DNA from: a virus
Lineage: Duplodnaviria > Heunggongvirae > Uroviricota > Caudoviricetes
Direction: 5' to 3' (one strand)
DNA length: 18,880 bases
Virus record (IMG/VR): IMGVR_UViG_2740892422_000003
Location: 1-18,880 of that record
Shown here: piece after piece, positions 2,164 through 18,880 of the stretch
How positions within the stretch are numbered: position 1 is the stretch's first letter
Layout: the number at the start of each line of letters is the position of its first letter
The notes under the pieces: generated by a model
Database searches by the model: none
Told to the model about the DNA's origin: nothing
Seen by the model: the letters and a program-made list of their open reading frames with translations, nothing else
Made by a program: the position numbers and the translations under genes

Positions 2164-2738
2164 TACTCACTCACTAAGTATGTGGCCACAACCTTCCCAA
2201 TCAATTGCACATCAGATACGTCGCAATCAACTGGATATTTTCCCCAGTCAATCCGCAATTTGTTACCAGGAAGTAACGTCAATTCTTTGATGCTTTTCGT
2301 ACCAGAATACTCAAGAAGGAACTTACCGTCCGTAACAGGGTAATCAGCGATATCTACGAAAAATCTCACTGAACTATCACTGATTATTTGAAGTTCACCT
2401 TTGTAGTTGGGGAGTATTGTCTTATCGAAAATTACGGATGCTTGGCGAACCATATCAGACCCTTCGATTTTATAGGCTGAGATTCGAGTGGTATCACTTG
2501 CCACCTGATCAAATCTAACGCCATCACCAGTGGTTAGCCAGTAGATAGAAGCTCCTGTTTCTAGAGCACAAAGTAGTACTAAATCAGCAGGAAAGTTGTC
2601 ACGCATGATACGTGTACTTAAAGCACTTGGAGACATTCCAAGATAATTTGCTAACTGCATTCTGGATGTAAAACCATAAGCCTCACACACCCTTTCGATT
2701 GCTTCGCGTGCACCTGTCTTGATGTTGTAAGTTGTCAT
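2163..2738 (-). CDS. cI: CI-type immunity repressor (phage 186 CI-like), about 191 aa from the internal ATG
   Basis: Sequence from the internal Met (MTTYNIKTGAREAIERVCEAYGFTSRMQLANYLGMSPSALSTRIMRDNFPADLVLLCALETGASIYWLTTGDG) has an N-terminal HTH-like region and the size of 186 CI. Its stop overlaps the int start by 1 nt. The track ORF extends to 2852, but that 38-codon extension overlaps the operator/promoter region, so the ATG at 2736-2738 is preferred. Confidence 0.8.
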   Translation of the reverse strand: MTTYNIKTGAREAIERVCEAYGFTSRMQLANYLGMSPSALSTRIMRDNFPADLVLLCALETGASIYWLTTGDGVRFDQVASDTTRISAYKIEGSDMVRQASVIFDKTILPNYKGELQIISDSSVRFFVDIADYPVTDGKFLLEYSGTKSIKELTLLPGNKLRIDWGKYPVDCDVSDVQLIGKVVATYLVSE

Positions 2739-2889
2739 GTTTGTAGTTCGCAACTGTTGACAAACGACAATTTTAAAAATAATCTCTGAATTGTTTCGAA
2801 TGTAGATATTGATAATTGTCGTTTGTAGATTATTAACAACTATTGTCACCAACGCTCATTAGTGACAAACGAATGAGGAATTTTGCCGT
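2739..2889. promoter_or_regulatory. Lysis-lysogeny switch region with repeated operator-like motifs and a rightward promoter
   Basis: Between divergent cI and the early operon. An 8-9 bp motif GTTTGTAG / GACAAACG occurs in both orientations at about 2739-2746, 2757-2767, 2817-2828 and 2864-2871. A TTGACA (2757-2762), 17-nt spacer, TAATCT (2780-2785) arrangement is a sigma70-like promoter pointing toward the early operon. Confidence 0.55.
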
Positions 2890-3078
2890 ATGCAAACTAA
2901 AGCTGCAACACATTCAGAAAGCAGGTGGGTACCTCTGAAAACGTTTTGCGACAGGGTTGAAATAAAACTGCGCACGGGACGTTACTGGGTACACACTGGC
3001 AAACTCAAAATCAAACCTAAAAGCAAACCGAAAGAACATGTGTTTGTAGATTGGCTTGCGTGGAACAGTGAAAAGTAA
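2890..3078 (+). CDS. Small basic DNA-binding protein, Cro/Apl/Cox-like (62 aa)
   Basis: First gene of the rightward early operon, divergent from cI. Small and basic (KLKIKPKSKPKEH). The call rests on synteny with 186 apl and P2 cox, not on recognised sequence similarity. Confidence 0.5.
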   Translation: MQTKAATHSESRWVPLKTFCDRVEIKLRTGRYWVHTGKLKIKPKSKPKEHVFVDWLAWNSEK

Positions 3079-3121
3079 TCATCACTTTTAGTGATTTTGA
3101 GATTGGGATGGAAGAAAAACA

Positions 3122-3625
3122 ATGTTTGATTACCAGACCTCTAAACATGCGCACTTTGATGCGGCTTGCCGAGCATTTGCAATTGAGCACAATCTTGAAG
3201 ATGTGGCCGCTGCCGTTGGTATGAGGCCGCAGATCCTGCGCAACAAACTGAACCCAGCACAACCGCACCGCCTGACCTGTGATGAGCTTTTGGCTATCAC
3301 GGATTACACCGAAGATGCGCGTTTGCTTGATGGAATGTTAGGTCAGATTAACTGCCTTCCATCCGTGCCGGTGAACAATGCCACAGAAGGCAACATGCAG
3401 TTGTGCGCACTGAGTGCCACAGCCTGTGTGGGCGCGATTGCTGGGGAAGCCGTATCAACTGGCCATATGACTGCCGCCCGCCGTACTCAAATTCTGGATC
3501 GTGCCCGCGATGCAATCCGTAGCTTATCCGTGCTGGCTTATACCGTTGAAAGCCGTATTCACTCTGCGCCTGTTCTGGCCGCTGCGGTGGATCTGGCCAC
3601 AACCAACGCCACCGGCCTGATGTGA
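3122..3625 (+). CDS. cII: CII-like phage regulatory protein (phage 186 CII family)
   Basis: 167 aa, beginning MFDYQTSKHAHFDAACRAFAIEHNLEDVAAAVGMRPQILRNKLNP, with a predicted HTH. Same position and size as 186 CII. Confidence 0.75.
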   Translation: MFDYQTSKHAHFDAACRAFAIEHNLEDVAAAVGMRPQILRNKLNPAQPHRLTCDELLAITDYTEDARLLDGMLGQINCLPSVPVNNATEGNMQLCALSATACVGAIAGEAVSTGHMTAARRTQILDRARDAIRSLSVLAYTVESRIHSAPVLAAAVDLATTNATGLM

Positions 3626-3634
3626 GGGAACACC

Positions 3635-3808
3635 ATGAAAGCGTTTGTCACTTACCTGAAAAAAGAATCACCAGACATGCAGTTGCCGAGTGGTTCAACG
3701 GGATGGATAGAACTTCCGAACGGTCAGCGCTGGAACCCTGGCCACATGTACAAATTCAATGGCCAGCAGCCGCGTCGCCCATGGTGGCGTCGTCTGATGG
3801 GGCTATAG
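3635..3808 (+). CDS. Small hypothetical early protein (57 aa), not in the ORF track
   Basis: ATG at 3635 is preceded by GAGGGAA about 7 nt upstream, immediately after the cII stop. Translation is MKAFVTYLKKESPDMQLPSGSTGWIELPNGQRWNPGHMYKFNGQQPRRPWWRRLMGL. The overlapping frame (track ORF 3622..) gives a W/P-rich sequence that looks like out-of-frame noise. Confidence 0.4.
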   Translation: MKAFVTYLKKESPDMQLPSGSTGWIELPNGQRWNPGHMYKFNGQQPRRPWWRRLMGL

Positions 3809-4245: not shown

Positions 4246-4646
4246 TGACCATTATTTCCGTTGAGGGTAAATCGTTGGGGGCTGAACTGGCTGTGTGGGG
4301 TGTCCCGCATAATTACGCTGTAGCGTTTGCAGCGAAAAGCACCAGTAAGAATGGCCGCATCGCTTTGCATCCGTTCTTCTTCAATGACACCGAGCACATG
4401 ACGAATCCGCGTCACTGGCTGGCGATCAATGCCGCTTTCTGGTGTTGCGTGTATCGCGAAGCTGAAAGCAAAGAAGCCCAGATAGAAGCGCTGGCGGGGA
4501 TTCGTGCAATTTTCTATACAGCTGGGGCGCTGGGTGTTGGCGAGATAAAAGCGCTGATCCAGGAGTGGTGGCGGACAACCTATGAGCTTCACCTGATTCC
4601 GGCACCGAACTACTCAGCCGCTACAGTACAACCCACTTTTCACTAA
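4245..4646 (+). CDS. Hypothetical early protein (133 aa)
   Basis: ORF translationally coupled to the upstream gene. No family recognised. Confidence 0.6.
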   Translation: MTIISVEGKSLGAELAVWGVPHNYAVAFAAKSTSKNGRIALHPFFFNDTEHMTNPRHWLAINAAFWCCVYREAESKEAQIEALAGIRAIFYTAGALGVGEIKALIQEWWRTTYELHLIPAPNYSAATVQPTFH

Positions 4647-4713
4647 TTAACAGCCTGAATTTTTTGGCCACGGTTCAAGTGGCCGGGGATTCTTTTGCCT
4701 TAAGGAAACCAAA

Positions 4714-4947
4714 ATGCACATGACACGTCAGGATTTACCCGCAACAAAATCAGGCACCGACCTGCTGGCCATGCTCACCAAAGCCACGCAGGAAGGTAAA
4801 GCCGCAGCTGCTGATCTGTGTTCCACACGTCTGGATAAGCTGGCCACCCATGCAGCCAATGAAGGTTTAAGCGCAGCGGAAATCGTTGAGTTAATCCGCG
4901 AAGAAGCCGCAGCGATTTGCAGCAAAGGCGGTGCGGCATGGCAATAA
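4714..4947 (+). CDS. Hypothetical small protein (77 aa), Ala-rich
   Basis: ATG preceded by AAGGAAA. Its 3' end overlaps the dam start. Confidence 0.5.
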   Translation: MHMTRQDLPATKSGTDLLAMLTKATQEGKAAAADLCSTRLDKLATHAANEGLSAAEIVELIREEAAAICSKGGAAWQ

Positions 4948-5798
4948 AAACTCCGCTTAAATGGGTGGGCAGCAAAGCCCGCCTTATGCCTAAGCTGCGT
5001 CCGCACCTTCCTGAAGGTAAACGCCTGGTTGAACCGTTCGCAGGTTCCTGCGCCGTCATGATGAATACGGATTATGACGATTATCTGATCGCAGATGTGA
5101 ATCCTGATCTGGTTAATCTTTATAAGGCGATGGCGTATCACACTGATGTGCTGCTGAATGAGCTGGAGAGCCTGTTTACTGCCGGTTCGTTAGGTGATGA
5201 AGAAAGCCGTGCCGTTTTCTATTACGCCGTGCGTGATGCTTTCAATCTTTCTGGTGGTAAGGCCGGTTCTGAATCTGTTGAAAATGCTGCGCGTTTCCTG
5301 TACCTGAATCGCCACTGTTTCAATGGCCTGTGCCGGTATAACCGCCGAGGCCAGTTCAACGTCCCGTTCGGTAAGTACAAAAAGCCTTATTTCCCCGCTG
5401 ATGAAATCCGCGCTTTTGCTGAAAAAGCGAAACGCGCAACGTTCATTACTGCCCACTATTCAGAAACGCTCGATTTGGTTCGGGACGGGAATGACGTTGT
5501 TTACTGTGATCCACCTTATCTGACTGAAAGCGATAATTTCACCGCTTACTATGGGCTCGGTTTTTCGCACATGGATCAGGGGAGGCTGGCGCGTAAGTTG
5601 CGCCGTCTGGCCAGAAAAGGCGTGCCGGTTGTGGCCTCTAATGCCGATCTGGAAATGGTGCATTACCTGTACGCCGGATTTGAAGCCGTTCGCATTAATG
5701 CCCCGCGTAGTGTTGGTGCCGCAGCTGCAAGCCAGAAAGTTGCTGCAGAGTTAATTCTGAAGTCGCCGCTTGATTCTATAGCGATGGCCTGCGCATGA
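4938..5798 (+). CDS. dam: DNA adenine methyltransferase (Dam-like, GATC N6-adenine MTase family)
   Basis: Motif I LKWVGSK, HLPEGKRLVEPFAGSCAVMMNTDYDDYLIADVNPDLVNLY, FLYLNRHCFNGLCRYNRRGQFNVPFGKYKKPYFP and catalytic DPPY (VVYCDPPYL) align closely with E. coli Dam as I recall it. Start set at the internal ATG (MAIKTPLKW); the track start at 4917 is an alternative. Confidence 0.9.
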   Translation: MAIKTPLKWVGSKARLMPKLRPHLPEGKRLVEPFAGSCAVMMNTDYDDYLIADVNPDLVNLYKAMAYHTDVLLNELESLFTAGSLGDEESRAVFYYAVRDAFNLSGGKAGSESVENAARFLYLNRHCFNGLCRYNRRGQFNVPFGKYKKPYFPADEIRAFAEKAKRATFITAHYSETLDLVRDGNDVVYCDPPYLTESDNFTAYYGLGFSHMDQGRLARKLRRLARKGVPVVASNADLEMVHYLYAGFEAVRINAPRSVGAAAASQKVAAELILKSPLDSIAMACA

Positions 5799-7816
5799 CT
5801 CCTGTCGCAAATGGCCAACATCATGCCGTCGATACCTGGCGGCGTGAAACGTTCGCACCGGGTACGCCTACAGACGCCACGATCACCGAGCGCCGCCTGT
5901 GGGCGGTTAATCCGCAGGATTACGAATGGCGCTCACAGTACCTGCATGAGATACCCGACTGGTTAGCCGGGTATTTTGGCCGTCGTTACGAAAAGCTTTT
6001 TTCTGGCCGTGACGGGCGTCGCCGTGCCAATACATTCCTGCGCAAAACAATCGGTGAGAATGTATTGCCACGTCTGCGCAAAGTGGCTGCGCGTTACTCG
6101 CTGGCCGCTGATGCTGCTGATCTTCCTTTTGGTAAGTCGCTGGAGCGCTTGCCGTCACTAGACCGTCCTGATCTTAAAAAACTGGCTGGCCAGGTATCTG
6201 GTTGGATTTCCCAGTCACTTTATGACTTCACCGAACAGTTTGATTCCGGCACTGACGATGCCAGAGAGCTGCATCGCCGCACCCTGGAATCTTACCGCCA
6301 TCTTTGTGCCTGTTGCCTGATGCTGAATAACCAGCCGCCGTACTGGACTGAACATGAGGCCAATGAAGGTCAACTGGAAATGCGTAAGGCGGAATCCGGG
6401 ATACTGCGCATGATGGCGCCGGAATGGTGGTACCTGCGTCTTAAACGTGCGCGTGATACGAAGCGCGAGCACATGGCCATTGCGGTGGGACAGGTGCAAA
6501 AAGCGGCCAGCGCTTATGTATCCCGCAAAACACTGGGCGAATGGATAGACCAGAAAAAGCGGAATCTGGAGTTCTTTAAAAAGTTTGATCTGCTGAATGA
6601 TGAGGGGCTGCGCATTGCACTGGACAGCCTGGTGCACCGCAGCGTTGCAAATCCGGCGATCCGTCGATGTGAACTAATGGTAAGAATGCGAGGGTTTGAA
6701 GATATGGCCAATGAAGAAGGACTGGCCGGTGAGTTTTACACCATCACCGCGCCATCACGTTTCCACGCAGTGCACAGCAAAGGTGGCTTTGTATCGCAAT
6801 GGGATGGATGTACGCCGCAGGATACCCAGCGCTATTTATGCGGCATATGGGCAAAAGCACGCGCAGCGATCTCGCGTGCGGGTATTCATGTATTTGGGTT
6901 TCGGGTTGTTGAGCCTCACCATGACGGGACACCGCACTGGCATATGTTGCTTTTTATGCGTCCGCATGACGTGGACACGGTACGCGATATTCTTTGCTAT
7001 CACGCCAGAATTACCGATTCTGAAGAACTGCAATCTGAAAAGGCGCTGAAGGCGCGTTTTCATGTTGAAGCGATCGATCCCGCCAAAGGTTCGGCCACGG
7101 GCTACATCGCGAAATACATTTCAAAAAATATTGATGGTTTTGCGCTGGATGGTGAGCAGGACGAAGAAACCGGCGAAAACCTGCGTGATATGGCTAAGTC
7201 CGTTTCCGCGTGGGCTTCACGCTGGCGTATTCGCCAGTTTCAGCAGATTGGTGGTGCGCCGGTAACTGTCTGGCGTGAGCTGCGTCGGTTGCGGGATCAG
7301 GTGCTGACCGATCGCAGAATGGATGCGGTTCTGGCCGCTGCTGATGTCGGTGACTGGGCTGCATATACCCAGGCGCAGGGCGGTGCACTGGTTGCCCGCC
7401 GTGATCTGGTTGTTCGTCTGGCCTATGAAATTACGGAACAGGGCAACGAGTACGCAGAGGACGTACAGCGCGTACAGGGGGTTTATTCTCCTTTAGTTCC
7501 TGATTCAGAAGTTTGCACCCGTCTGGTTAAGTGGCAAAAGGTTGCGAAGTTGGCCGAAGCGCCAGCGGAGGCGGGGTTTTCTGGCGGCAACGCCGCCCCT
7601 TGGAGTTCTGTCAATAACTGTACGGAGGGGGGAGCCCGCAGACGGTTAAAACTGGAATTACGCAGTCGGGGTTTTGAGGGTTCCGATGAAGAAATAGCCA
7701 TTCTCCTGCGGGGTAGTGGTTTGAGATTCGGTCAAGGGGCGCTGATTTACCGTAATGGGCGGCTTAAAGAGACTCAAAACGAGCCATTACAGGAGCTGTG
7801 GCCGGGGTGGGTGTAG
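5795..7816 (+). CDS. Rolling-circle replication initiation protein (P2 gpA / 186 A-like)
   Basis: 673 aa. Contains an HUH-type motif (HHDGTPHWHMLLF) and a downstream tyrosine motif (GYIAKYISKN) typical of P2 A-family nickases. Sits after the early regulatory genes as in P2/186. Start overlaps the dam stop (ATGA). Confidence 0.88.
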   Translation: MTPVANGQHHAVDTWRRETFAPGTPTDATITERRLWAVNPQDYEWRSQYLHEIPDWLAGYFGRRYEKLFSGRDGRRRANTFLRKTIGENVLPRLRKVAARYSLAADAADLPFGKSLERLPSLDRPDLKKLAGQVSGWISQSLYDFTEQFDSGTDDARELHRRTLESYRHLCACCLMLNNQPPYWTEHEANEGQLEMRKAESGILRMMAPEWWYLRLKRARDTKREHMAIAVGQVQKAASAYVSRKTLGEWIDQKKRNLEFFKKFDLLNDEGLRIALDSLVHRSVANPAIRRCELMVRMRGFEDMANEEGLAGEFYTITAPSRFHAVHSKGGFVSQWDGCTPQDTQRYLCGIWAKARAAISRAGIHVFGFRVVEPHHDGTPHWHMLLFMRPHDVDTVRDILCYHARITDSEELQSEKALKARFHVEAIDPAKGSATGYIAKYISKNIDGFALDGEQDEETGENLRDMAKSVSAWASRWRIRQFQQIGGAPVTVWRELRRLRDQVLTDRRMDAVLAAADVGDWAAYTQAQGGALVARRDLVVRLAYEITEQGNEYAEDVQRVQGVYSPLVPDSEVCTRLVKWQKVAKLAEAPAEAGFSGGNAAPWSSVNNCTEGGARRRLKLELRSRGFEGSDEEIAILLRGSGLRFGQGALIYRNGRLKETQNEPLQELWPGWV

Positions 7817-7896
7817 TTGTGTAAGTATGTGAAAGGCATTCATTTGTCAGTAGATGGCAGGAAAAAGCACTTTCACATTTTGTGCTTAAATGTATA

Positions 7897-7912
7897 CTGT
7901 GTTTATATACAG
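7897..7912. promoter_or_regulatory. LexA (SOS) box, CTGT-N8-ACAG
   Basis: CTGTGTTTATATACAG is a perfect match to the CTGT-N8-ACAG LexA consensus with an AT-rich centre. It overlaps candidate -10 elements (TATACT about 7893-7898, TATATA about 7904-7909). Confidence 0.7.
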
Positions 7913-9505: not shown

Positions 9506-11277
9506 GCTGCCTCTTTCCTTACACCCCAGCGGGATTTAGGTTTGTTTTCATAGTTAAGGGGTTCGTTATGCAGACCGTGGGTAATCGCCCAGAACGCCTC
9601 CGCGTGGCCAGTATCCTGGCTGCGGTCAGCGACAAACGTCATGGCGTTGCCGCTTTGTGTGGTGGTTCGGCGCACAGACATAAAGCTGGCCGCGATCTCT
9701 TTCAGGTTTTTATCCCACTCAATACGCTGGCTTTCCACCACGTCCACCGCTTTCAGTACCAGTTGATTTTTAGTGTTCAGGTCGTAACGAATAGGGACGG
9801 CCACGCGCATGGCAAAATGCTGAATGTTGTCAAAAACACCCTGGCCAATGCCGGTAACGTCCACCCCCAGATAAGTGAAGTTGTATTTTTTGAACAACTG
9901 CTCGATCTGTTTTGCCTGATACCGGAAGTTCATGCCTTTCCAGTAAATCACCTTCAGAACGCGGAACTTCTCCACGGCGAGCATCGGTGGAGCGATGATG
10001 ACAAAACAGGACAAATCACCGCTGCGAGCCGGGTCAAAGCCACCCCATACAGGTCTGTCACCGAATGGCCGCGCTGCATCAGGATTGTGATCCTGCCAGG
10101 TGTCGATTTCAACGCCGCAGGCTTCCAGATCGGAAAAGCTGAAAACGGAATCTTTGCTGTCAACGAACACGCACATATAGAGCATGTTAAAAGTGGCGTC
10201 GTTGTAGCGGTTGCGAAGTTTCTCGATGTTCGCCAGGTTGAAACCGCCCGCAATGGCATCTTCCATCGTAATGACGTAGCGCCATTGCCCATCCGGGCAG
10301 AGTCGCCCACCGTCACGCATTTCGTTAAAGGAAGGAAACTTAATGGCCGCACGTTTTTTACTGCCCTGTTTCCACTCATCGCCCGTCCAGAACGGGTACG
10401 CCTGGTGCGTTTTTGCCGATGGCGTTGAAAAATAGGTGGTACGCCACTTGTCATGCGTGGCCATTGCGCTGGCCACTTCGTTAAGTTTTGCAAAGTTTGG
10501 TACCCAGAAATATTCGTCACAGTACAGGTGGCCGCTGTAGGACTGGGCGGTGTTTTTGTTGGTGGAGAGAAAACGCAGTTCTGCGCCGTTGCTTAAGCGG
10601 ATCGGGTTGCCGGTCAGCGTAATACCGAAATACTGCTCTGCAATATTCACGATGTAAGACCGGAACACTTCAGCCTGAGCCTTTGACGCTGACAGAAAGA
10701 TTTGCGGATCGCCGGTCATCACCGCGTTTTCAAACGCTTCAAACGCAAAATACCAGGTTGCACCGATCTGGCGGCTTTTCAGGATGTTCCTGACAAGCTG
10801 GCCAATGTTATTGCGCAGGTGTTTCTGATATTCAAAAAGATGTTCCTCAGCCCATGCGTCAAAGTCCTCCTGCGTCAGCGAGGTAATATCGTTTTTCTTG
10901 TACTTCCGTTTGCTGCGCGGTTCGTCGTCATTGTTGTCCCGTGCAGTTGCTTGCCCGGAACTCTGACCGCTGGCCATTTTCTCTTTATGTTTATTACTCT
11001 GCGCACGCAGTTTGGTGGCATGAGTAATGAGCATGTCCATTTCTTTCAGGTCGAGATCGGTTTTGTTATCGCGGCTGGCCAGCAGCTGGTAACGGCGTTC
11101 AATCGCTTCCTCTGTGCTTTCAAAACTGAGCAAATCCGCCCAGCTGTATTTCTCCGCCCAGTAGTAAACGATCCGCGCATTCGGCAGATTTAATTCAGAT
11201 GCGATTTCCTTTGGCGTATAGCGGCGCAGATAAAGTGCGCGAACAACGCCTTTTAATTCTTCAGAGTATTTAGCCAT
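9502..11277 (-). CDS. Terminase large (ATPase) subunit (P2 gpP-like)
   Basis: 591 aa (P2 P is about 590 aa). Divergent from the scaffold gene across a short control region and followed by the portal gene with a 4-nt overlap, as in the P2 head module. Confidence 0.82.
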   Translation of the reverse strand: MAKYSEELKGVVRALYLRRYTPKEIASELNLPNARIVYYWAEKYSWADLLSFESTEEAIERRYQLLASRDNKTDLDLKEMDMLITHATKLRAQSNKHKEKMASGQSSGQATARDNNDDEPRSKRKYKKNDITSLTQEDFDAWAEEHLFEYQKHLRNNIGQLVRNILKSRQIGATWYFAFEAFENAVMTGDPQIFLSASKAQAEVFRSYIVNIAEQYFGITLTGNPIRLSNGAELRFLSTNKNTAQSYSGHLYCDEYFWVPNFAKLNEVASAMATHDKWRTTYFSTPSAKTHQAYPFWTGDEWKQGSKKRAAIKFPSFNEMRDGGRLCPDGQWRYVITMEDAIAGGFNLANIEKLRNRYNDATFNMLYMCVFVDSKDSVFSFSDLEACGVEIDTWQDHNPDAARPFGDRPVWGGFDPARSGDLSCFVIIAPPMLAVEKFRVLKVIYWKGMNFRYQAKQIEQLFKKYNFTYLGVDVTGIGQGVFDNIQHFAMRVAVPIRYDLNTKNQLVLKAVDVVESQRIEWDKNLKEIAASFMSVRRTTTQSGNAMTFVADRSQDTGHAEAFWAITHGLHNEPLNYENKPKSRWGVRKEAA

Positions 11278-11437
11278 GCGGATAATTATGCCGTGGCTGT
11301 GATGAAAAAACGGTGGTGTTAATTCGTGTCCGTTCGGTAAAGCGTTATAACCGAACTGTTCAGAATAAAGCGTAATGCAGTGGCGGTTTTATTTGGCAAT
11401 AATTGATTTGCAGCGTCAGGGAGTGGAACAGGGGGAT
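11278..11437. promoter_or_regulatory. Divergent late-promoter region between terminase (leftward) and scaffold (rightward) genes, containing a dyad symmetry element
   Basis: Inverted repeat GTTCGGT-N11-ACCGAAC at about 11332-11356, embedded in TGTCCGTTCGG...CCGAACTGTTCAG. It lies between two divergently starting late operons, where P2-type late promoters carry the activator-binding dyad. Confidence 0.5.
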
Positions 11438-13329: not shown

Positions 13330-15222
13330 ATGGCACTTTCCCCCGCGCAGCGTCACAGCCAGCGCATTGCGATGGAACAAAAGCTGAAACGCAGCCAGGC
13401 ACTGGAAACCACGGAAAGTATGCACCTGCTGATCAGGGCGTTGGAAACAGATGTGGAACACGTTCGAAGTCTGCCTACCATCGCCGATCGCGTCGAGTAT
13501 AAACGCGATGTGCTGTTAATGATGAAACCAGTAAAACGCCTTTACCTTTCAACGGATGAAGTTCACCTGGTGGATGCCAGCCTGGTACTGGAGCTGAACA
13601 GCTGCGGCCGGGGCTTCATCACCGCAGAGACAACAACCGATTACACCGGAAAACTGGTGCGGCTGGATGTGGGGTATACCGATCTGCTTTTGCGCTGGTT
13701 TACGGGGTATGTGGAGCGATCACAGCCCGCAGAAAACGGTTTTCAGCGTCTGTTCATTCGTGAGCTGGCAGGTGTGTTTGAAAGGATGTGGCCGTGTTCG
13801 TTTCAACACCCGACTTTGCGAGAAATTGCGGGCTGGCTGGAAGAAAACAGCGGGATCACAGTCAGTGTGCCTGATGCACAGTACAGCGATACCCCCATCC
13901 CACATTTTACCCATAACGGTACTGGTTATCAGTTGCTGAACAATCTGGGCAGGGCGTTCAGTATCCAGGATTACATCTGGTACCAGTTGCCTGATGGTTC
14001 GCTTTACGTCGGCGGCGCAGAAAAATCATTGTTTGCCGGTCGTCCCGTAGAAATCCCGTCAGAGTTCAGCCAGGGGGCTGCTGGCGGTAACTCTGTGACA
14101 TTACCAGTGATCCAGACTATGCGGCCAGGGGTGGAGATGAACGGTGAACGCGTGACTAAAGTTCACCTGACGAATGACACGATGGCGATCACATGGACGC
14201 CGAGAAACCGCGCAACGGGTAAACCTTTGCAGAAAACACCGGCGCAACGGCAGATTGAAAGCCATTACCCGGAACTGGCATCCGGGCTTCATTTGCCAAA
14301 GATGGCCAGAGTCGTGGCGCATTCAGAGCCAGTAAAAAGCGGTAACTTTGCCGATCCCTTCCGGCCACGTTACGCAGTGGACGTGCAGCTGCTTGACGCA
14401 GACGGAAACCCGGACAATCAGACGCCTGTTTACTCAGCGGTGCCGCTGCCGGTGCCAATGGCCGGGAATGATTCAGGTATGTTTCAGTTCCCGCCAGAAG
14501 GGACGCTGGTTGAGGTTGCATTCACGGGAGGCAGACCGGATAAACCCTTTATCAGGCAGACGCTGCCGGATGGTACCAGCCTGCCGGACGTTAAACCCGG
14601 TGAGCAATTGCAGCAGCAGCGGGAAGAAGTTTCCCAGCGGGTGACTCAGGCAGGAGACTGGGTAAGACAGACCGATCAGACCATCAGTGAAACATCGATG
14701 GTGCGAACGGTAAAGGCCGATACGGAACAGCGCGAACTGGTCAGCCGTGAAACCACGGTGAAAGCCACGGATAAAACTACGGTACTGGGAACCGCCACAC
14801 TGCTGGCCGGAGCTATTCAGCAGGTAAGCGCCGGTGATTATAGCCAGGCGGTGAAAGGTAACAGACTGGCCAGTATTGAAGGAAACGAAGAAACGGACAT
14901 AGCAGGACAGCAGTCCACTAAAGTGGGCGGTGCTGTAGCCGTGGAGGTTGGCGAAAGCCTGACAGAGAAAATTGCCGCACTGCGTAAATCAGTGGCCGCT
15001 GGCGGTCAGCAGGTCATGGGGGCAACTGTCCATATTGGCAGTGAGAGTATCAACGCCCTGACCATGATGCTGGATACCATTGATTTACTGGCAGATCTGG
15101 CGCAGCAATGCGCGAGCCATTCGCACCCCACCGTTGGGACGCCAACCAATGCCGCCGCGTTCACACAGACGGCGACGAAAGCCGGGCAGACCCGGAGCAA
15201 GTACCAGGGGATCATTGCTTAA
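13330..15222 (+). CDS. Chimeric 630-aa protein: small-terminase-like N-terminus (gpM-like) joined to a baseplate central-spike-like C-terminus (gpV/gp5/VgrG-like OB fold plus His-containing apex)
   Basis: Starts 4 nt after the capsid gene stop, with GGAGGG upstream. The N-terminus MALSPAQRHSQRIAMEQ resembles the start of P2 gpM (MTSPAQRH..., from memory). The C-terminal half has an OB-fold spike signature (FQFPPEGTLVEVAFTGGRPDKPFI), a repetitive T/V/K-rich segment (TVKADTEQRELVSRETTVKATDKTTVLGTA) and an HxH element near the end (CASHSHPTVGTP). Confidence 0.6.
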   Translation: MALSPAQRHSQRIAMEQKLKRSQALETTESMHLLIRALETDVEHVRSLPTIADRVEYKRDVLLMMKPVKRLYLSTDEVHLVDASLVLELNSCGRGFITAETTTDYTGKLVRLDVGYTDLLLRWFTGYVERSQPAENGFQRLFIRELAGVFERMWPCSFQHPTLREIAGWLEENSGITVSVPDAQYSDTPIPHFTHNGTGYQLLNNLGRAFSIQDYIWYQLPDGSLYVGGAEKSLFAGRPVEIPSEFSQGAAGGNSVTLPVIQTMRPGVEMNGERVTKVHLTNDTMAITWTPRNRATGKPLQKTPAQRQIESHYPELASGLHLPKMARVVAHSEPVKSGNFADPFRPRYAVDVQLLDADGNPDNQTPVYSAVPLPVPMAGNDSGMFQFPPEGTLVEVAFTGGRPDKPFIRQTLPDGTSLPDVKPGEQLQQQREEVSQRVTQAGDWVRQTDQTISETSMVRTVKADTEQRELVSRETTVKATDKTTVLGTATLLAGAIQQVSAGDYSQAVKGNRLASIEGNEETDIAGQQSTKVGGAVAVEVGESLTEKIAALRKSVAAGGQQVMGATVHIGSESINALTMMLDTIDLLADLAQQCASHSHPTVGTPTNAAAFTQTATKAGQTRSKYQGIIA

Positions 15223-15319: not shown

Positions 15320-15874
15320 TCAAGTAGTGGTAATTGTATGGCTTTTGCGGGTTATATAAACGCTATTGGCGGGTACGTCTCTGTTAACGAATGACATTGC
15401 GCCAATTGTCACGTTATCACCAATGGTTAGATCATCACCGATGATGCACGAATTTGCACCAATCTCCACATTGTCTCCGATCCTGATGGCTTTGATTCCC
15501 TCAACCGTTTTTAATCCAATTGTTGTGTTTTGTCGGATACGCACATTCTTACCAATCACAGCCTGGGGGCAAATGACTATTCCAACGAAATGATAAATTT
15601 TGAATTTTTCCCCTATCTGTGCCCCCAACCCAATATCAGTATTGTATTTTGAAACAAGTCTCCTATGGATTCTTCGCGCCCATTTCACTCTTGCTCTCCC
15701 ACCCTGGCAGTAAAGGCAATTCGCTATTCTCCACCAACACATGAACCTGTATCCGGGCTGTCTCCAGCAACGTAGTATGATTCTTCTCCATGAGAATTTT
15801 TTACTGTTGCTCAGTATGTCCGCGCACAATAACTGCTTCATTTCCTCGTAGTGAGATATTTTGCTGCTGCTCAT
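15320..15874 (-). CDS. Hexapeptide-repeat (left-handed beta-helix) acetyltransferase, WcaB/CysE-like sugar O-acetyltransferase family
   Basis: Tandem hexapeptide repeats (IGKNVRIRQNTTIGLKTVEGIKAIRIGDNVEIGANSCIIGDDLTIGDNVTIGAMSFV) and an N-terminal region similar in pattern to WcaB-type acetyltransferases. Lower GC than the phage core. Start is ambiguous (ATG at 15874 or 15841; the track ORF begins with TTG at 15889). Confidence 0.8.
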   Translation of the reverse strand: MSSSKISHYEEMKQLLCADILSNSKKFSWRRIILRCWRQPGYRFMCWWRIANCLYCQGGRARVKWARRIHRRLVSKYNTDIGLGAQIGEKFKIYHFVGIVICPQAVIGKNVRIRQNTTIGLKTVEGIKAIRIGDNVEIGANSCIIGDDLTIGDNVTIGAMSFVNRDVPANSVYITRKSHTITTT

Positions 15875-16661
15875 AAATTGTCCGTCCAAATAATCCTGAC
15901 GGTTATCGTAACATGGGAATGGTCTGATTTTCTGCTAACAGCACAACACTAGGCTATGTGGTTCGGTCTGATAGTGGGCTTCTTCATCCAAAATGATTTA
16001 GTTGGGTTACCAACACAAATCTATTTCTCACATCGTCATAGGCGTCACCAGACGCATTTTAAACCCTTTAGTAACAAACCCTACCCCGCGCACCAAGTGT
16101 AAAAGATCCGAAGCGTGGCGTGGCGCTGGTAGGGTCATATGATGGCGAAATAAATCTTTCGCAGACAAAAACGGCGCTACACCGCACCCGCCTGCGGTTT
16201 CTGGATCTGGAAATTTTTTCAGTTTTATTTTTCTACAAACCAGACCGCCAGACCGCACCATTACTGGCGGCTTTGCAGATAATCAGAACTGAAATGATTG
16301 AAAAGAATTTCAGTGTTTTTCACTTTCATGGATCTGTGGAGGATCGAATACAAAATGTAACCAGCAGAAAAATAAGGGGAAATAATTTTTTTGTGAGTGG
16401 GAAGGATCGTTTTTGTTTTCTGGTTGTTTTCGTCGTAGAAAAGCCGAGGCCAGATTTAGCAAGGCATAGGGACAATTAGAAGGTTCATAGAAAACTGAAA
16501 AAACTGCATGCATGTCGTGGAAACTAGCGAGCTAACAATTGCATCGAAATCTAATTTTAATCTTGGAACTTGAGAAAACTTTTGTCAAATTAGTTGTCGC
16601 TTTTTAGTTGTGGATATCCTTCCGATGTTTACTTGGCAGAGCTTACATTAAGGCATTCGAT

Positions 16662-17780
16662 ATGACTGAAAAATTCACCGCAATTTTGTTAGATACGAGT
16701 ATCTACGATCAGTACGGATTAAAGCTTGAGAAAGGACTGCTGGGTAAGCTTTCCCAGTTCAGCAGAACCCCGACAACGTTTTTGATACCGGATGTAATTT
16801 ACAATGAAGTTAAAAATCATCTTGAAAGAAAAATCAAGACATCACGTGGCTCCCTTGAGAAAGCTTTCGAAGAAGCTGGCGATCATCTTTTTTTTGATGG
16901 AAGCGAACTAAATGATGCAAGAAAAACATTGATTGAAAGCAGAGAAGTTGAAGGATTAGGAAAGAGCAGATTAGACAGATTTGTTGGCGTAACAGATGCG
17001 AAGGTTCTAACTACAGGGGATTATGTTTCGGTACCTGAACTCCTTGAACGATACTTCTCTTCTGAAGCTCCTTTCGCAGATACAGGTAAGAAAAAAAATG
17101 AGTTTCCCGATGCAATAACATTAATGGCCGTCCAAGCCTGGGCTAAAGAGAATGGTGAAAATGTTCTTGCTGTAGCAAGAGATGACGACTGGCAGAGATT
17201 TTGTATTGATGCTGAGAATTTGCACTATGAACCTGACTTATCAAACGCTTTAGCACACTTCAATGAAGAAACCGCACCTTATGAACTAATTGATAACTTA
17301 CAAAAAGCACTTGCTGAAGGACAAGCCGGTAAATTCTTGCATGATGTTGCTGTACACCTTGAGTCAACCTTTGAAGGATTTGCACCAGAACAAGAGGCAG
17401 ATTCATATTTATACTGGGAGGCTGACGGATGCTCAGGTGGATTTGAAGATTTTGAGTTTACAGATAACCACTTCACTGTCATCGACAAGGATGAAAACTG
17501 GGTTGTTATAGAAGCATTTGCAGACATTTCACTTTACGCAGAAGGTGATTTCTCCCTATCGGTTTACGATTCATTCGACAAAGACCATGCTTACATGGGG
17601 TCAATTACCAAGCGAGCCGAGGAAACATATACATCCAGAATACTTATCACAATCTCCGGAGACTTATCAGGTTCTATAGATGATTTGACCGTTGACGATG
17701 TGGAAGTGATCGAGCGTCCAACGTCGATGGATTTTGGGGAGCTTGAATTAGAGTATGAGCCTGACGAGCAAGACTTGTAA
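16662..17780 (+). CDS. PIN-like domain protein with a strongly acidic C-terminal region (372 aa)
   Basis: Start at the ATG (MTEKFTAILLDTSIYDQYG) preceded by TAAGG. The N-terminus has a PIN-like acidic signature (ILLDTSIY; later EFPDAITLMAV, ARDDDW). The C-terminal roughly 150 aa are very D/E-rich (EADGCSGGFEDFEFTDNHF...DDLTVDDVEVIERPTSMDFGELELEYEPDEQDL). Low GC. Confidence 0.65.
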   Translation: MTEKFTAILLDTSIYDQYGLKLEKGLLGKLSQFSRTPTTFLIPDVIYNEVKNHLERKIKTSRGSLEKAFEEAGDHLFFDGSELNDARKTLIESREVEGLGKSRLDRFVGVTDAKVLTTGDYVSVPELLERYFSSEAPFADTGKKKNEFPDAITLMAVQAWAKENGENVLAVARDDDWQRFCIDAENLHYEPDLSNALAHFNEETAPYELIDNLQKALAEGQAGKFLHDVAVHLESTFEGFAPEQEADSYLYWEADGCSGGFEDFEFTDNHFTVIDKDENWVVIEAFADISLYAEGDFSLSVYDSFDKDHAYMGSITKRAEETYTSRILITISGDLSGSIDDLTVDDVEVIERPTSMDFGELELEYEPDEQDL

Positions 17781-17923: not shown

Positions 17924-18733
17924 TTATTCTTTTTTTTCATCCCACGATTCAAGAATAAACATAGTTAGTGTATGTGCAGCATTGATGGCTAATCGTGCGT
18001 GTCGGGGCTTGAGATTGTAAATTTTTCGTCCTGCGCCATGAGCTGAACTCGCATGAGTTCTTAGCGAGCCGATACCATCGGTGAGAGAATATAAGCCGCT
18101 CAAAATGCGTTTTAAGTCCTCATCTTCTACCGCTTTAGTGTCAAGACCTAAATGTTCACGAACGGTCTTCCACAAGCCCTGCAAATCCTGCTTCGCAGGA
18201 ATCGGTAGGTTTTCATCTGCGATAAAAATTTTAAATGTTGATTCTAATATATTACAGGCTGCTGATACTGCTTCTCTTGGGTCAGTATGCAAGTTTTCTA
18301 AAGCTCTTGCGAATTCCATTTCTACTGCTGGAGTATTACGTTTCTGGATAGCTTCTTTCAAGGAAAGGGATGCTAGTGATGCTCCATCAGTAATGTAACC
18401 GCCAGTCACATAGTTCAGCCCATAACGACCAAGTAGTTCCGGCATTTTTTTAACAAACTCGACTTTCTTTTTTTCCCACTCATAGTATGGATTGGCGGGT
18501 AACTCTGACTCCATATAGGTTTCGATTAAGCGACCAAGTAAAACTAATGGTTCATCAGATTCTTTATTAATACGCCTTAACCATTCGAGAGCTTTAACGT
18601 GCTTAGATCCTTCGGGTGGTTCCCCTGGCGCATCAGCATAGGCAAACAAACTATCCAAACTAGCATGGGTTTCAGTGCTAGCAACGAAGTCAGCTACAAC
18701 AGATATTACAGGTTGAGGTATTGGCCGTCCCAT
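17924..18733 (-). CDS. HEPN-like / abortive-infection (Abi_C-like) protein (269 aa)
   Basis: The C-terminal segment GSLRTHASSAHGAGRK fits the HEPN R-x(4-6)-H motif found in Abi_C-type domains, followed by NAAHTLTMFIL. Low GC. Lies next to the right att repeat. Confidence 0.6.
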   Translation of the reverse strand: MGRPIPQPVISVVADFVASTETHASLDSLFAYADAPGEPPEGSKHVKALEWLRRINKESDEPLVLLGRLIETYMESELPANPYYEWEKKKVEFVKKMPELLGRYGLNYVTGGYITDGASLASLSLKEAIQKRNTPAVEMEFARALENLHTDPREAVSAACNILESTFKIFIADENLPIPAKQDLQGLWKTVREHLGLDTKAVEDEDLKRILSGLYSLTDGIGSLRTHASSAHGAGRKIYNLKPRHARLAINAAHTLTMFILESWDEKKE

Positions 18734-18830: not shown

Positions 18831-18880
18831 TTGGTGGAGCTGGCGGGAGTTGAACCCGCGTCCGAAATTCCTACATCCTC
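18831..18880 (-). repeat. ssrA: Right att direct repeat: 3' end of ssrA (tmRNA), probably the end of the intact gene whose body lies beyond the window
   Basis: Identical to bases 1-50. The reverse complement is the tmRNA 3' tRNA-like end with CCA. For a minus-strand ssrA the gene body would lie at coordinates above 18880. Confidence 0.85.

Follow-up and report, generated by a model that had tools for sequence, protein, structure and literature searches.

The dam-gpA locus and the element that carries it

The window, by which we mean the whole stretch of 18,880 bp that was analyzed, is an att-to-att deletion derivative of a P2/186-like Escherichia coli prophage. The prophage belongs to a 186/ESSI-2-like type of temperate phage (Peduoviridae, Quadragintavirus-like), for which ssrA of Escherichia is the integration site. 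The terminator, genes, motifs, and probable origin of the dam-gpA locus described below lie on the plus strand. A terminator scan identified a tR1-like intrinsic terminator at 4661 to 4699, just 5′ of a DUF2732-dam-A gene block; it is a GC-rich hairpin with a T-run, in which the 11-bp stem is followed by TTCTTTTG. Its position is that of the annotated tR1 of phage 186, directly 5′ of the DUF2732 open reading frame, and by this synteny it would be expected to function as a terminator. The DUF2732 gene (4714 to 4947, 77 aa; PF10809, E = 3.8e-12) is a homologue of 186 orf79, an assignment also based on the ORF list and the gene order of relatives. Its last 10 nt overlap the start of dam, and this gene order is common to relatives. 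Next come dam (4938 to 5798) and gpA (5795 to 7816), which overlap by the four nucleotides ATGA at 5795 to 5798. The operon order matches that of 186 and of intact prophages, and the early expression proposed for the gene pair by a first-pass annotation agrees with its location, since dam and gpA both belong to the early lytic operon that follows apl-cII, an arrangement also seen in phage 186.

The window also encodes a 630-aa gpM::baseplate fusion, which among public records is present in the window's own 18,880-bp record alone. We read 24 contigs that encode an identical Dam protein, and at each of the six places that represent them the prophage is intact. Intact relatives include the prophages in GCA_025430615.1 and NZ_AP045820. 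Because the fusion is unique and the prophage is intact elsewhere, the window is best regarded as a one-off deletion derivative, and on the same grounds we rejected the idea that the tail-less element represents a lineage of capsid-encoding satellites. The derivative is unable to make virions, and the copy of dam in this record may therefore never act in a productive cycle.

The dam gene encodes an orphan methyltransferase of the Dam family

The dam open reading frame (ATG at 4938 to 4940, TGA at 5796 to 5798) specifies a 286-aa protein that is predicted to be an orphan N6-adenine DNA methyltransferase of the D12 class. It matched the Pfam D12 methyltransferase profile PF02086 with E = 1.6e-66 and 225.1 bits (cut-off 22) over positions 1 to 251 of 253, and scored 263.5 bits against the NCBIfam model TIGR00571 "dam" (cut-off 114.85). 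Alignment with the structure of E. coli Dam (EcoDam, 2g1p) extended over the full length with 42.6% identity (E = 1e-58), and DpnM, also a GATC enzyme, matched with E = 1e-33. The catalytic motif IV, DPPY, is found at residues 191 to 194 (5508 to 5519), aligned to the DPPY of EcoDam, and is kept in 71 to 72 of 73 Dam homologues linked to P2-like phages. The SAM-binding motif I reads FAGSC (residues 34 to 38, 5037 to 5051) and aligns to F35-V-G-A-G39 of EcoDam. Within it, F34 and the first glycine, G36, are invariant across the 73 homologues, as is D53, which corresponds to the acidic residue D54 that follows strand β2 in EcoDam. The last position is cysteine rather than glycine in 51 of the 73 homologues, and with cysteine as the majority state, FAGSC is a family-typical variant of FxGxG; T4 Dam also lacks the final glycine of this motif. 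Taken together, the profile matches, motif IV, motif I with its acidic residue, and the GATC-recognition residues described below all point to the Dam family. The identification of a Dam methyltransferase by the first-pass annotation is thus borne out at the level of predicted protein sequence, and the catalytic residues, whose absence from an alignment it had named as counterevidence, are conserved instead.

Several observations distinguish the protein from the chromosomal enzyme. It shares with E. coli Dam (PDB 2G1P, 4RTJ) the fold family, the full-length alignment, DPPY, and the SAM-binding and GATC-contact residues, but it is carried by a phage, within a lytic operon. With the housekeeping Dam equivalog NF008152 (PRK10904) it scored 253.7 bits, below the cut-off of 441, and this score together with the 42.6% identity to EcoDam indicates a phage paralogue rather than the host dam. 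Its neighbors are the DUF2732 gene and gpA, with no adjacent restriction endonuclease gene, and the rest of the early operon yielded no nuclease domain. In PADLOC, the protein scored best with the model "orphan methyltransferase" (oMTase, 302.8 bits). In comparisons with 21 relatives, the dN/dS of dam was 0.09 to 0.25; the gene is under purifying selection.

gpA is a P2/186-type initiator with a probable internal origin

The gene downstream (ATG at 5795 to 5797, TAG at 7814 to 7816) encodes a 673-aa protein that matches PF05840, Phage_GPA, with E = 4.5e-104. Its HUH motif is H381-W-H383 (6935 to 6943), and the active-site tyrosines of the Y-x-x-x-Y motif are Y437 and Y441 (7103 to 7117); neither motif varies when the protein is aligned with the A proteins of 186, P2, SEN5, and VcP032. 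A probable origin, or A-protein nick region, lies inside the coding sequence at 7594 to 7626. Here CGCCCCTTGGAGTTCTGTCAATAACTGTACGG matches the sequence surrounding the rep_origin annotated in phage 186 at 31 of 32 aligned bases, with one 1-nt gap, and the P2 equivalent also aligns. The Phage_GPA domain, the HUH motif, the paired tyrosines, and the predicted origin within its own coding sequence confirm what had been called a rolling-circle Rep gene as a P2 gpA-type replication initiator (nickase).

The dam/gpA overlap is conserved and may couple gpA to any upstream gene

The overlap of the dam stop with the start of the initiator gene, as first described, is exact. For the contigs encoding the identical Dam, the 4-nt overlap was present in all six places shown. 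It is also retained in relatives whose dam genes have diverged to a dS of up to ∼1.7, for example at loci L009 and L096 (CGCATGAG/C), and it was found in 17 of the 26 directly adjacent Dam-gpA pairs in our survey. In calling gpA starts, tblastn matches that began at residues 50 to 74 gave spurious 51-aa ORFs, so the class of junctions with a gap of >15 nt is unreliable and was left out of the results. The dam/gpA overlap is more than chance.

We then compared Shine-Dalgarno (SD) pairing across the early operon. The gpA start had a pairing energy of −2.6 kcal/mol (mean of the background, −2.0), the weakest in the early operon; all other early genes, dam among them, had values of −6.1 to −9.3 kcal/mol. 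Overlapping gpA starts of relatives were also weak (median, −3.8), as was the start of A in 186 (−3.0). The stop and start codons overlap and gpA has almost no ribosome-binding signal of its own, and the weak pairing fits translation of gpA by reinitiation after dam. The GenBank record of phage 186 further notes that translation of A appears to need orf84 to be translated to its end. One element of the 186 arrangement was not evident: a terminator scan of 5795 to 5950 revealed no counterpart in the prophage of tM1, which in 186 is annotated inside A. Likewise, folding of 5740 to 5930 gave no significant RNA structure at the junction (z = −0.75), and neither a tM1-like terminator nor any special RNA fold in or downstream of the junction is supported.

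It could be argued that the overlap reflects gene packing, with gpA translated independently and dam a passenger unlinked to replication. Four nucleotides is the commonest overlap length in the operons of bacteria and phages, this operon has other overlapping junctions (DUF2732/dam by 10 nt, orf142 and orf133 by 1 nt), unrelated genes occupy the same position in relatives, and the junction has no detectable structure. We nevertheless consider incidental packing unlikely, because SD pairing at gpA is at the background level while the other early genes have good SD sequences, because the overlap is retained at dS > 1, and because of the apparent dependence of A on its upstream gene in the 186 record. 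Since genes of this operon usually overlap, the overlap between dam and gpA is real yet not special to dam. The same position in phage 186, with the same 4-nt overlap, is held by a PAPS-reductase-like gene, and we therefore ascribe the coupling to gpA. It appears to be a conserved property of gpA with any upstream gene. Translational coupling, as originally proposed, is thus consistent with the ATGA, the weak gpA SD, and the 186 parallel, but a Dam-specific arrangement is not, since other genes fill the position.

The position 5′ of gpA appears to be a variable accessory slot

Among 76 species-level genomic loci, 31 had a Dam homologue upstream of gpA, as did 37 of 61 IMG/VR loci. In other relatives, the slot is occupied by Dcm (a C5 cytosine methylase) or by a PAPS-reductase-like gene, and Pfam assigned the intervening ORFs of 280 to 360 aa in ten relatives to Dcm or PAPS_reduct. 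Two methyltransferases precede A in SEN5, and in the relative ev129, dcm lies between dam and gpA. At two loci (L137 and L141) the Dam proteins are 83 to 84% identical to ours while gpA is only 49 to 50% identical, a disparity that indicates cassette exchange. From these comparisons, the position just 5′ of gpA appears to be a variable accessory slot, in keeping with the earlier view of dam as accessory content within a core operon.

The closest named phages, Escherichia phages ESSI2_ev040 and ev015 (Quadragintavirus), are 96.3% identical in nucleotide sequence over 4600 to 7900, with 95.8% identity for Dam and 98.1% for gpA. In their annotation gp28 ("nicking at origin of replication") and gp29 ("DNA methyltransferase") share the 4-nt overlap seen in the prophage, and Dam adjoins gpA in ESSI2_ev040; they differ in carrying two additional genes, one for an exonuclease subunit and one for an "RNA-binding"/DUF3850 protein, between DUF2732 and dam. 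Salmonella phage Fels-2 (NC_010463) has a "DNA adenine methylase-like protein" (STM2730) directly 5′ of, and overlapping, a "P2 gpA-like protein" (STM2729). It shares the order of DUF2732 followed by Dam-gpA and a CI/Apl/CII-type early operon. Its Dam is 53% identical to that of the prophage, with FAGSC and DPPY common to both. However, Fels-2 has a TraR/DksA-like gene between DUF2732 and dam, an annotated overlap of 10 nt, and a P2-type tail module. In the Fels-2-like prophage of Klebsiella pneumoniae Kp52145, the coordinates of the DNA adenine methylase (2016847 to 2017704) and the replication endonuclease (2017701 to 2020115) give the same 4-nt overlap (PMC7826664), although the host is different and TraR again lies between DUF2732 and dam. 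A Dam methylase ORF is also borne by the 34-kb Ec67 retron element (Hsu et al., 1990, as cited in PMC7826664).

Phage 186 resembles the prophage in having tR1 before the DUF2732 orf, an origin inside A, and an ATGA overlap of orf84 with an A gene whose SD is weak, but the upstream gene is the PAPS-reductase-like orf84 and there is no Dam. Classical P2 is more distant. Its gpA is homologous (38% identity), with the origin within the gene and a small upstream orf overlapping the A start, but its immunity region is of the C/Cox type, in contrast to the CI/Apl/CII type of the prophage, and its early operon contains no methyltransferase (PMC3091744), just as the first-pass annotation stated in saying that classical P2 lacks dam.

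GATC is the probable target but is distributed as expected by chance

To assess the specificity of the enzyme, we aligned it with EcoDam, for which we take the GATC-recognition residues to be K9, Y119, N120, L122, R124, P134, and Y138, from their roles in the EcoDam-DNA structure 2G1P. The corresponding residues are K8, F128, N129, L131, R133, P143, and Y147, so that the sole change in the contact set is Y119 to F. K8 and R133 are invariant in the 73 homologues, and P143 is present in 72. We infer from these residues that the prophage Dam is very probably GATC specific.

We next examined the distribution of GATC. The prophage part contains 59 sites, with an observed/expected ratio of 0.98 (maximal-order Markov), ordinary among 4-mer palindromes. 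The GATC density analysis that had been suggested thus uncovered neither depletion nor enrichment. With the count at expectation, the sequence bears no trace of selection by GATC-directed restriction, and we rejected avoidance or enrichment as a mark of restriction pressure or regulation.

Might the enzyme instead act as a regulator that methylates particular GATC sites in the origin, the immunity switch, or the late promoters of the phage and thereby steers the onset of replication or the choice between lysis and lysogeny, as at oriC, pap, and P1 pac? Dam would be made together with the initiator, Dam-dependent control of excision or expression is documented in other Salmonella prophages (PMC7380047), and P1 requires GATC methylation at pac (PMC12707154). 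In the prophage, however, no GATC occurs in the origin core (7594 to 7626; the closest sites, at 7403 and 8067, lie at distances of 190 and 440 bp), in the interval from 2507 to 3232, which covers the CI/apl immunity switch, or in the divergent terL/scaffold late-promoter region (11277 to 11375). Tight GATC pairs are confined to coding sequence, and many close relatives without Dam share the same gpA and origin. With no GATC in the origin core and the immunity switch, a regulatory role is unsupported; we regard it as distinctly unlikely, and the suggested modulation of origin or promoter methylation is disfavored.

Somewhat less probable still is a specificity other than GATC, guarding against another restriction system. 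The D12 class does have members with other specificities, and both the modest identity to EcoDam and the shortfall against NF008152 leave room for one. Against this stand the full-length alignment to EcoDam, the conserved equivalents of K9, L122, R124, P134, N120, and Y138, with R133 and K8 invariant, and the match to DpnM.

Excess Dam is known to disturb mismatch repair, a point that would favor lysogenic conversion, in which Dam expressed from the prophage changes GATC methylation, the mutation rate, or gene expression in the host. Prophage-encoded methyltransferases can indeed change host phenotypes (PMC12435837), but this explanation is the least probable that we considered, given that dam lies inside an early lytic operon, expected to be CI repressed, 3′ of a terminator-like hairpin, that no σ70-like promoter was detected on the plus strand between 2700 and 8500 by an admittedly insensitive scan, and that GATC is already methylated by the host Dam.

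Discussion

Overall, we consider it likely that dam is an accessory orphan gene in a 186/ESSI-2-like early operon, to which gpA is chained by reinitiation, with the enzyme adding GATC-methylating capacity. The course of expression, reinitiation, and protection that we infer would be as follows. By analogy with 186, the operon would be silent in the lysogen through CI repression of pR, and upon induction or infection it would be transcribed through the tR1-like terminator. Ribosomes would translate DUF2732 and next dam, terminate at the TGA within ATGA, and reinitiate at the overlapping gpA ATG, which is nearly devoid of its own SD sequence. Reinitiation at this codon would tie synthesis of the initiator to translation of the upstream gene. 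Since the E. coli host already has a Dam, the prophage gene is redundant in specificity, and its likely benefit would be added GATC methylation at the very stage when the scarce host enzyme cannot keep pace with rolling-circle replication. The progeny genomes would thereby become fully methylated instead of remaining unmethylated or hemimethylated, forms that are substrates of MutH or SeqA, and in the next host they could be guarded against restriction by GATC-cutting, methylation-sensitive enzymes of the DpnII/MboI type.

Orphan Dam methylases carried by phages are familiar from T4, P1, HP1, Fels-2, and the retron Ec67 prophage. The dam-gpA layout is itself a common and ordinary arrangement, one that public genomes already annotate and that is known in such phages as Fels-2. 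The exact Dam and gpA proteins already carry names in NCBI. With the layout so widespread in both surveys, and with the two genes adjacent in Fels-2 and ESSI2_ev040, the novelty implied by the first-pass annotation was overstated. Our search found no literature linking Peduoviridae, Dam, and GATC.

A more speculative reading, which we hold to be improbable, is that the slot 5′ of gpA may be dedicated to DNA-modification enzymes (Dam, Dcm, and PAPS-reductase-like proteins) translationally chained to the initiator, with coupling that would fix the stoichiometry of the enzyme relative to the cis-acting initiator and perhaps its localization in cis. If this were true, every newly initiated rolling circle would be modified while it is made, and the locus would be a functional replication-modification module, not loose accessory cargo.

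Returning to the preferred reading of an accessory Dam with a chained initiator, its significance beyond correct annotation is small. It does suggest a modestly useful generalization: in P2/186-like phages, the ribosome-binding site of gpA is weak, and its translation is chained to that of a variable accessory gene upstream, most commonly one for a DNA-modification enzyme. This chaining could guide experiments on the timing of initiator synthesis and on whether modification genes benefit from occupying the slot.

A Dam-type methyltransferase gene overlaps the gene for the replication initiator

The dam ORF extends from an ATG at 4938 to a TGA at 5798 (+ strand, 286 aa) and the gpA ORF from an ATG at 5795 to a TAG at 7816 (+ strand, 673 aa), exactly as located and described in the first-pass annotation, and the two share an ATGA at 5795-5798. 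The dam product belongs to the D12 class of N6-adenine methyltransferases, whose profile it matches over its full length (Pfam PF02086, E=1.6e-66). It passes the NCBIfam model TIGR00571 'dam' (263.5 bits vs a cut-off of 114.85), and its alignment with E. coli Dam (EcoDam; PDB 2g1p, E=1e-58, 42.6% identity) is also full-length; DpnM was a further match (E=1e-33). The catalytic residues are in place on alignment, with DPPY at residues 191-194, a motif I that reads F-A-G-S-C, and D53 as the acidic counterpart of EcoDam D54. The GATC-base contacts in the EcoDam-DNA structure (K9, Y119, N120, L122, R124, P134, and Y138) are conserved in the window Dam with the sole exception of Y119, which is changed to F. 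When residue conservation was scored in 73 extracted Dam homologues adjoining gpA genes, F34, G36, D53, K8, and R133 proved invariant and DPPY was retained in 71-72; in most of them (51/73), as in the window Dam, motif I ends in Cys instead of Gly. Pairwise dN/dS values for dam of 0.09-0.25 across 21 relatives, with dS up to 1.7, point to purifying selection on the gene. We infer that the window Dam is active and GATC-specific. Since its score falls short of the housekeeping-Dam equivalog cut-off (253.7 vs 441), it counts as a phage paralogue; neither neighbour of dam is a nuclease gene, and the top PADLOC model for its product is 'orphan methyltransferase'.

The downstream gene encodes a P2 gpA-type initiator (PF05840, E=4.5e-104). 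Its HUH motif (H381-W-H383) and tyrosine pair (Y437 and Y441, spaced Y-x-x-x-Y) are shared without change by the aligned A proteins of phages 186, P2, SEN5, and VcP032, and bear out its identification as a rolling-circle Rep. The sequence at 7594-7626 (CGCCCCTTGGAGTTCTGTCAATAACTGTACGG) matches that surrounding the annotated 186 rep_origin and its P2 equivalent, and this probable origin lies inside the A gene, as do the origins of 186 and P2.

Translation of gpA is probably coupled to the upstream gene

Shine-Dalgarno (SD) pairing is all but absent at the gpA start (-2.6 kcal/mol, with a window background of -2.0 ± 2.5), while all other early genes range from -6.1 to -9.3 kcal/mol, dam itself being at -8.4. 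The A gene of 186 is similar (-3.0), and the median for 64 relatives in which the gpA start overlaps an upstream stop is -3.8. In 186, the gene directly 5' of A is the PAPS-reductase-like orf84, which also overlaps A by an ATGA, and the GenBank record states that translation of orf84 to its end 'appears necessary for translation of A protein'. Because sequence and the 186 analogy agree, the dam-gpA translational coupling proposed in the first-pass annotation is well supported, as a property of gpA with any gene upstream rather than of dam. No tM1-like terminator turned up inside gpA in a terminator scan, and RNA folding at the dam/gpA junction was unexceptional (z=-0.75). Separately, a Logan assembly yielded a 619-aa predicted protein (P0038) with both PF02086 and PF05840 and 98% identity to the window gpA. 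The call apparently arose from a read-through or frameshift that fused the two genes at the ATGA junction, and an error in sequencing or assembly could account for it.

dam and gpA lie beyond a probable terminator in a 186-type early operon

The early operon is of the 186 type. Leftward int (1150-2163, - strand) and CI (longest ORF 2163-2852, 229 aa, TTG start, - strand) are followed by an apl/cox-like gene (2890-3078), cII (3122-3625), fil (3635-3808), and two small orfs. A strong terminator-like hairpin with an 11-bp stem and T-run (4661-4699, + strand) separates orf133 from a DUF2732 gene, with DUF2732, dam, and gpA as the successive genes on its 3' side. The 186 record has the anti-terminated tR1 at this same position, directly before its DUF2732 orf, so dam and gpA would be terminator-distal within the early operon. 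On the 3' side of gpA are ogr, portal, and terL, all on the - strand, with scaffold and capsid last in gene order, past terL. The CI longest ORF is ∼36 residues longer than the annotated CI of relatives (191-193 aa), and other gene callers were divided (191 vs 228 aa), so that neither the true CI start nor the pR/pL switch region can be placed with certainty.

Cargo genes occur at both element ends: a 337-aa protein of phrog_17460 between attL and int (130-1143, - strand), a hexapeptide-repeat (acetyltransferase-like) protein (15320-15889, - strand), a 390-aa PIN_12-domain protein (16608-17780, + strand), and an AbiJ-like/Abi_C protein (17924-18733, - strand; PADLOC AbiJ, E=9e-17). All four are likely to be morons with an anti-phage or accessory role.

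The arrangement is widespread and already annotated

The nearest phages, Escherichia phages ESSI2_ev040 and ev015 (Peduoviridae, Quadragintavirus; 96.3% nucleotide identity), have dam and gpA annotated with the same 4-nt overlap. We surveyed 160 gpA loci, 80 from bacterial genomes (one per species) and 80 from IMG/VR. A same-strand Dam homologue was present in the gpA upstream flank at 31/76 genomic and 37/61 IMG/VR loci; it directly adjoined gpA at 11 and 15 loci, respectively, with the exact 4-nt overlap in 5 and 12 of these pairs. The intervening gene, abutting gpA, was often a C5 cytosine methylase (PF00145) or PAPS-reductase-domain protein (PF01507); phage ev129 has the order dam-dcm-gpA, and SEN5 carries two methyltransferases 5' of gpA. 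At two IMG/VR loci (L137 and L141), Dam is 83-84% identical to the window Dam whereas the gpA beside it reaches only 49-50% identity, a contrast that indicates horizontal exchange of the dam cassette between distinct gpA lineages.

In the Salmonella LT2 reference prophage Fels-2, STM2730 ('DNA adenine methylase-like protein', 53% identity to the window Dam, with an annotation that notes similarity to the adenine methylase of retron Ec67) lies directly 5' of gpA and overlaps it, and the gene table of a Klebsiella Fels-2-like prophage has the same 4-nt overlap as the window (PMC7826664). A close dam homologue (>80% nucleotide identity) was found in 28/5,426 complete E. coli genomes, where PGAP names it 'DNA adenine methylase' or 'Dam family site-specific DNA-(adenine-N6)-methyltransferase', and the window's exact Dam and gpA proteins occur under those names in ∼30 NCBI contigs. 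The dam-gpA arrangement is thus common, already annotated, and already known. Classical P2 does lack a methylase, as the first-pass annotation had stated (PMC3091744, and our inspection of the P2 early operon).

This copy is a recent deletion derivative

Identical 50-bp direct repeats at 1-50 and 18831-18880 (TTGGTGGAGCTGGCGGGAGTTGAACCCGCGTCCGAAATTCCTACATCCTC) are the complement of the ssrA/tmRNA 3' end, a sequence that all 5,426 complete E. coli genomes carry at ≥99%. It follows that the window is a whole att-to-att element of ∼18.8 kb, integrated or as an excised circle. A 630-aa ORF (13330-15222, + strand) is an in-frame fusion of the first 63 residues of the small terminase gpM (phrog_74) with an entire baseplate protein (phrog_2258, profile positions 1-544 of 544). 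It reflects the loss, relative to intact prophages, of ∼13 kb that encoded the remainder of gpM and the head-completion, lysis, and tail functions. The fusion protein occurs in only one public (NCBI) record, of 18,880 bp, while every place shown for the 24 contigs read with an identical Dam was an intact prophage; thus the dam-gpA module belongs to a normal phage, of which this copy is a defective derivative of recent origin.

Related head-only, tail-less versions are integrated at the rcdA/ybjL site in E. coli EcPF15 (L004, NZ_CP054227) and 300709 (L169, NZ_CP025903). Their deletions begin on the left at or just past the gpM start, as in the window (within the 5' part of gpM in EcPF15), and differ at the right end, and there may be a recurrent deletion hotspot near the gpM start. 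In two intact-prophage contigs (L170 and L171), directly outside the prophage left end (contig positions 31-4880), lies a P4-like island encoding an Arm-DNA-binding-domain integrase, a SIR2_2 protein, a DUF87/AAA ATPase, and Psu. The island resembles a defence-carrying satellite of the P4 type, in tandem with a potential P2-like helper, both at the ssrA site.

GATC content and a possible function for dam

GATC density across the element, a check proposed in the first-pass annotation, is extreme in neither direction: the prophage part has 59 sites (4.8 per kb; observed/expected 0.98 under a maximal-order Markov model), unremarkable among 4-mer palindromes, and these counts carry no footprint of GATC-directed restriction. 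GATC is missing from the ori core, from the stretch 2507-3232 that spans the CI/apl switch, and from the intergenic region of terL and scaffold, so the suggested role in origin or promoter methylation is without sequence support; tight GATC pairs are few, all within coding sequence. Instead of a regulatory role, dam may supply additional GATC-methylating capacity co-produced with the initiator, which would allow full methylation of rapidly replicating and packaged DNA.
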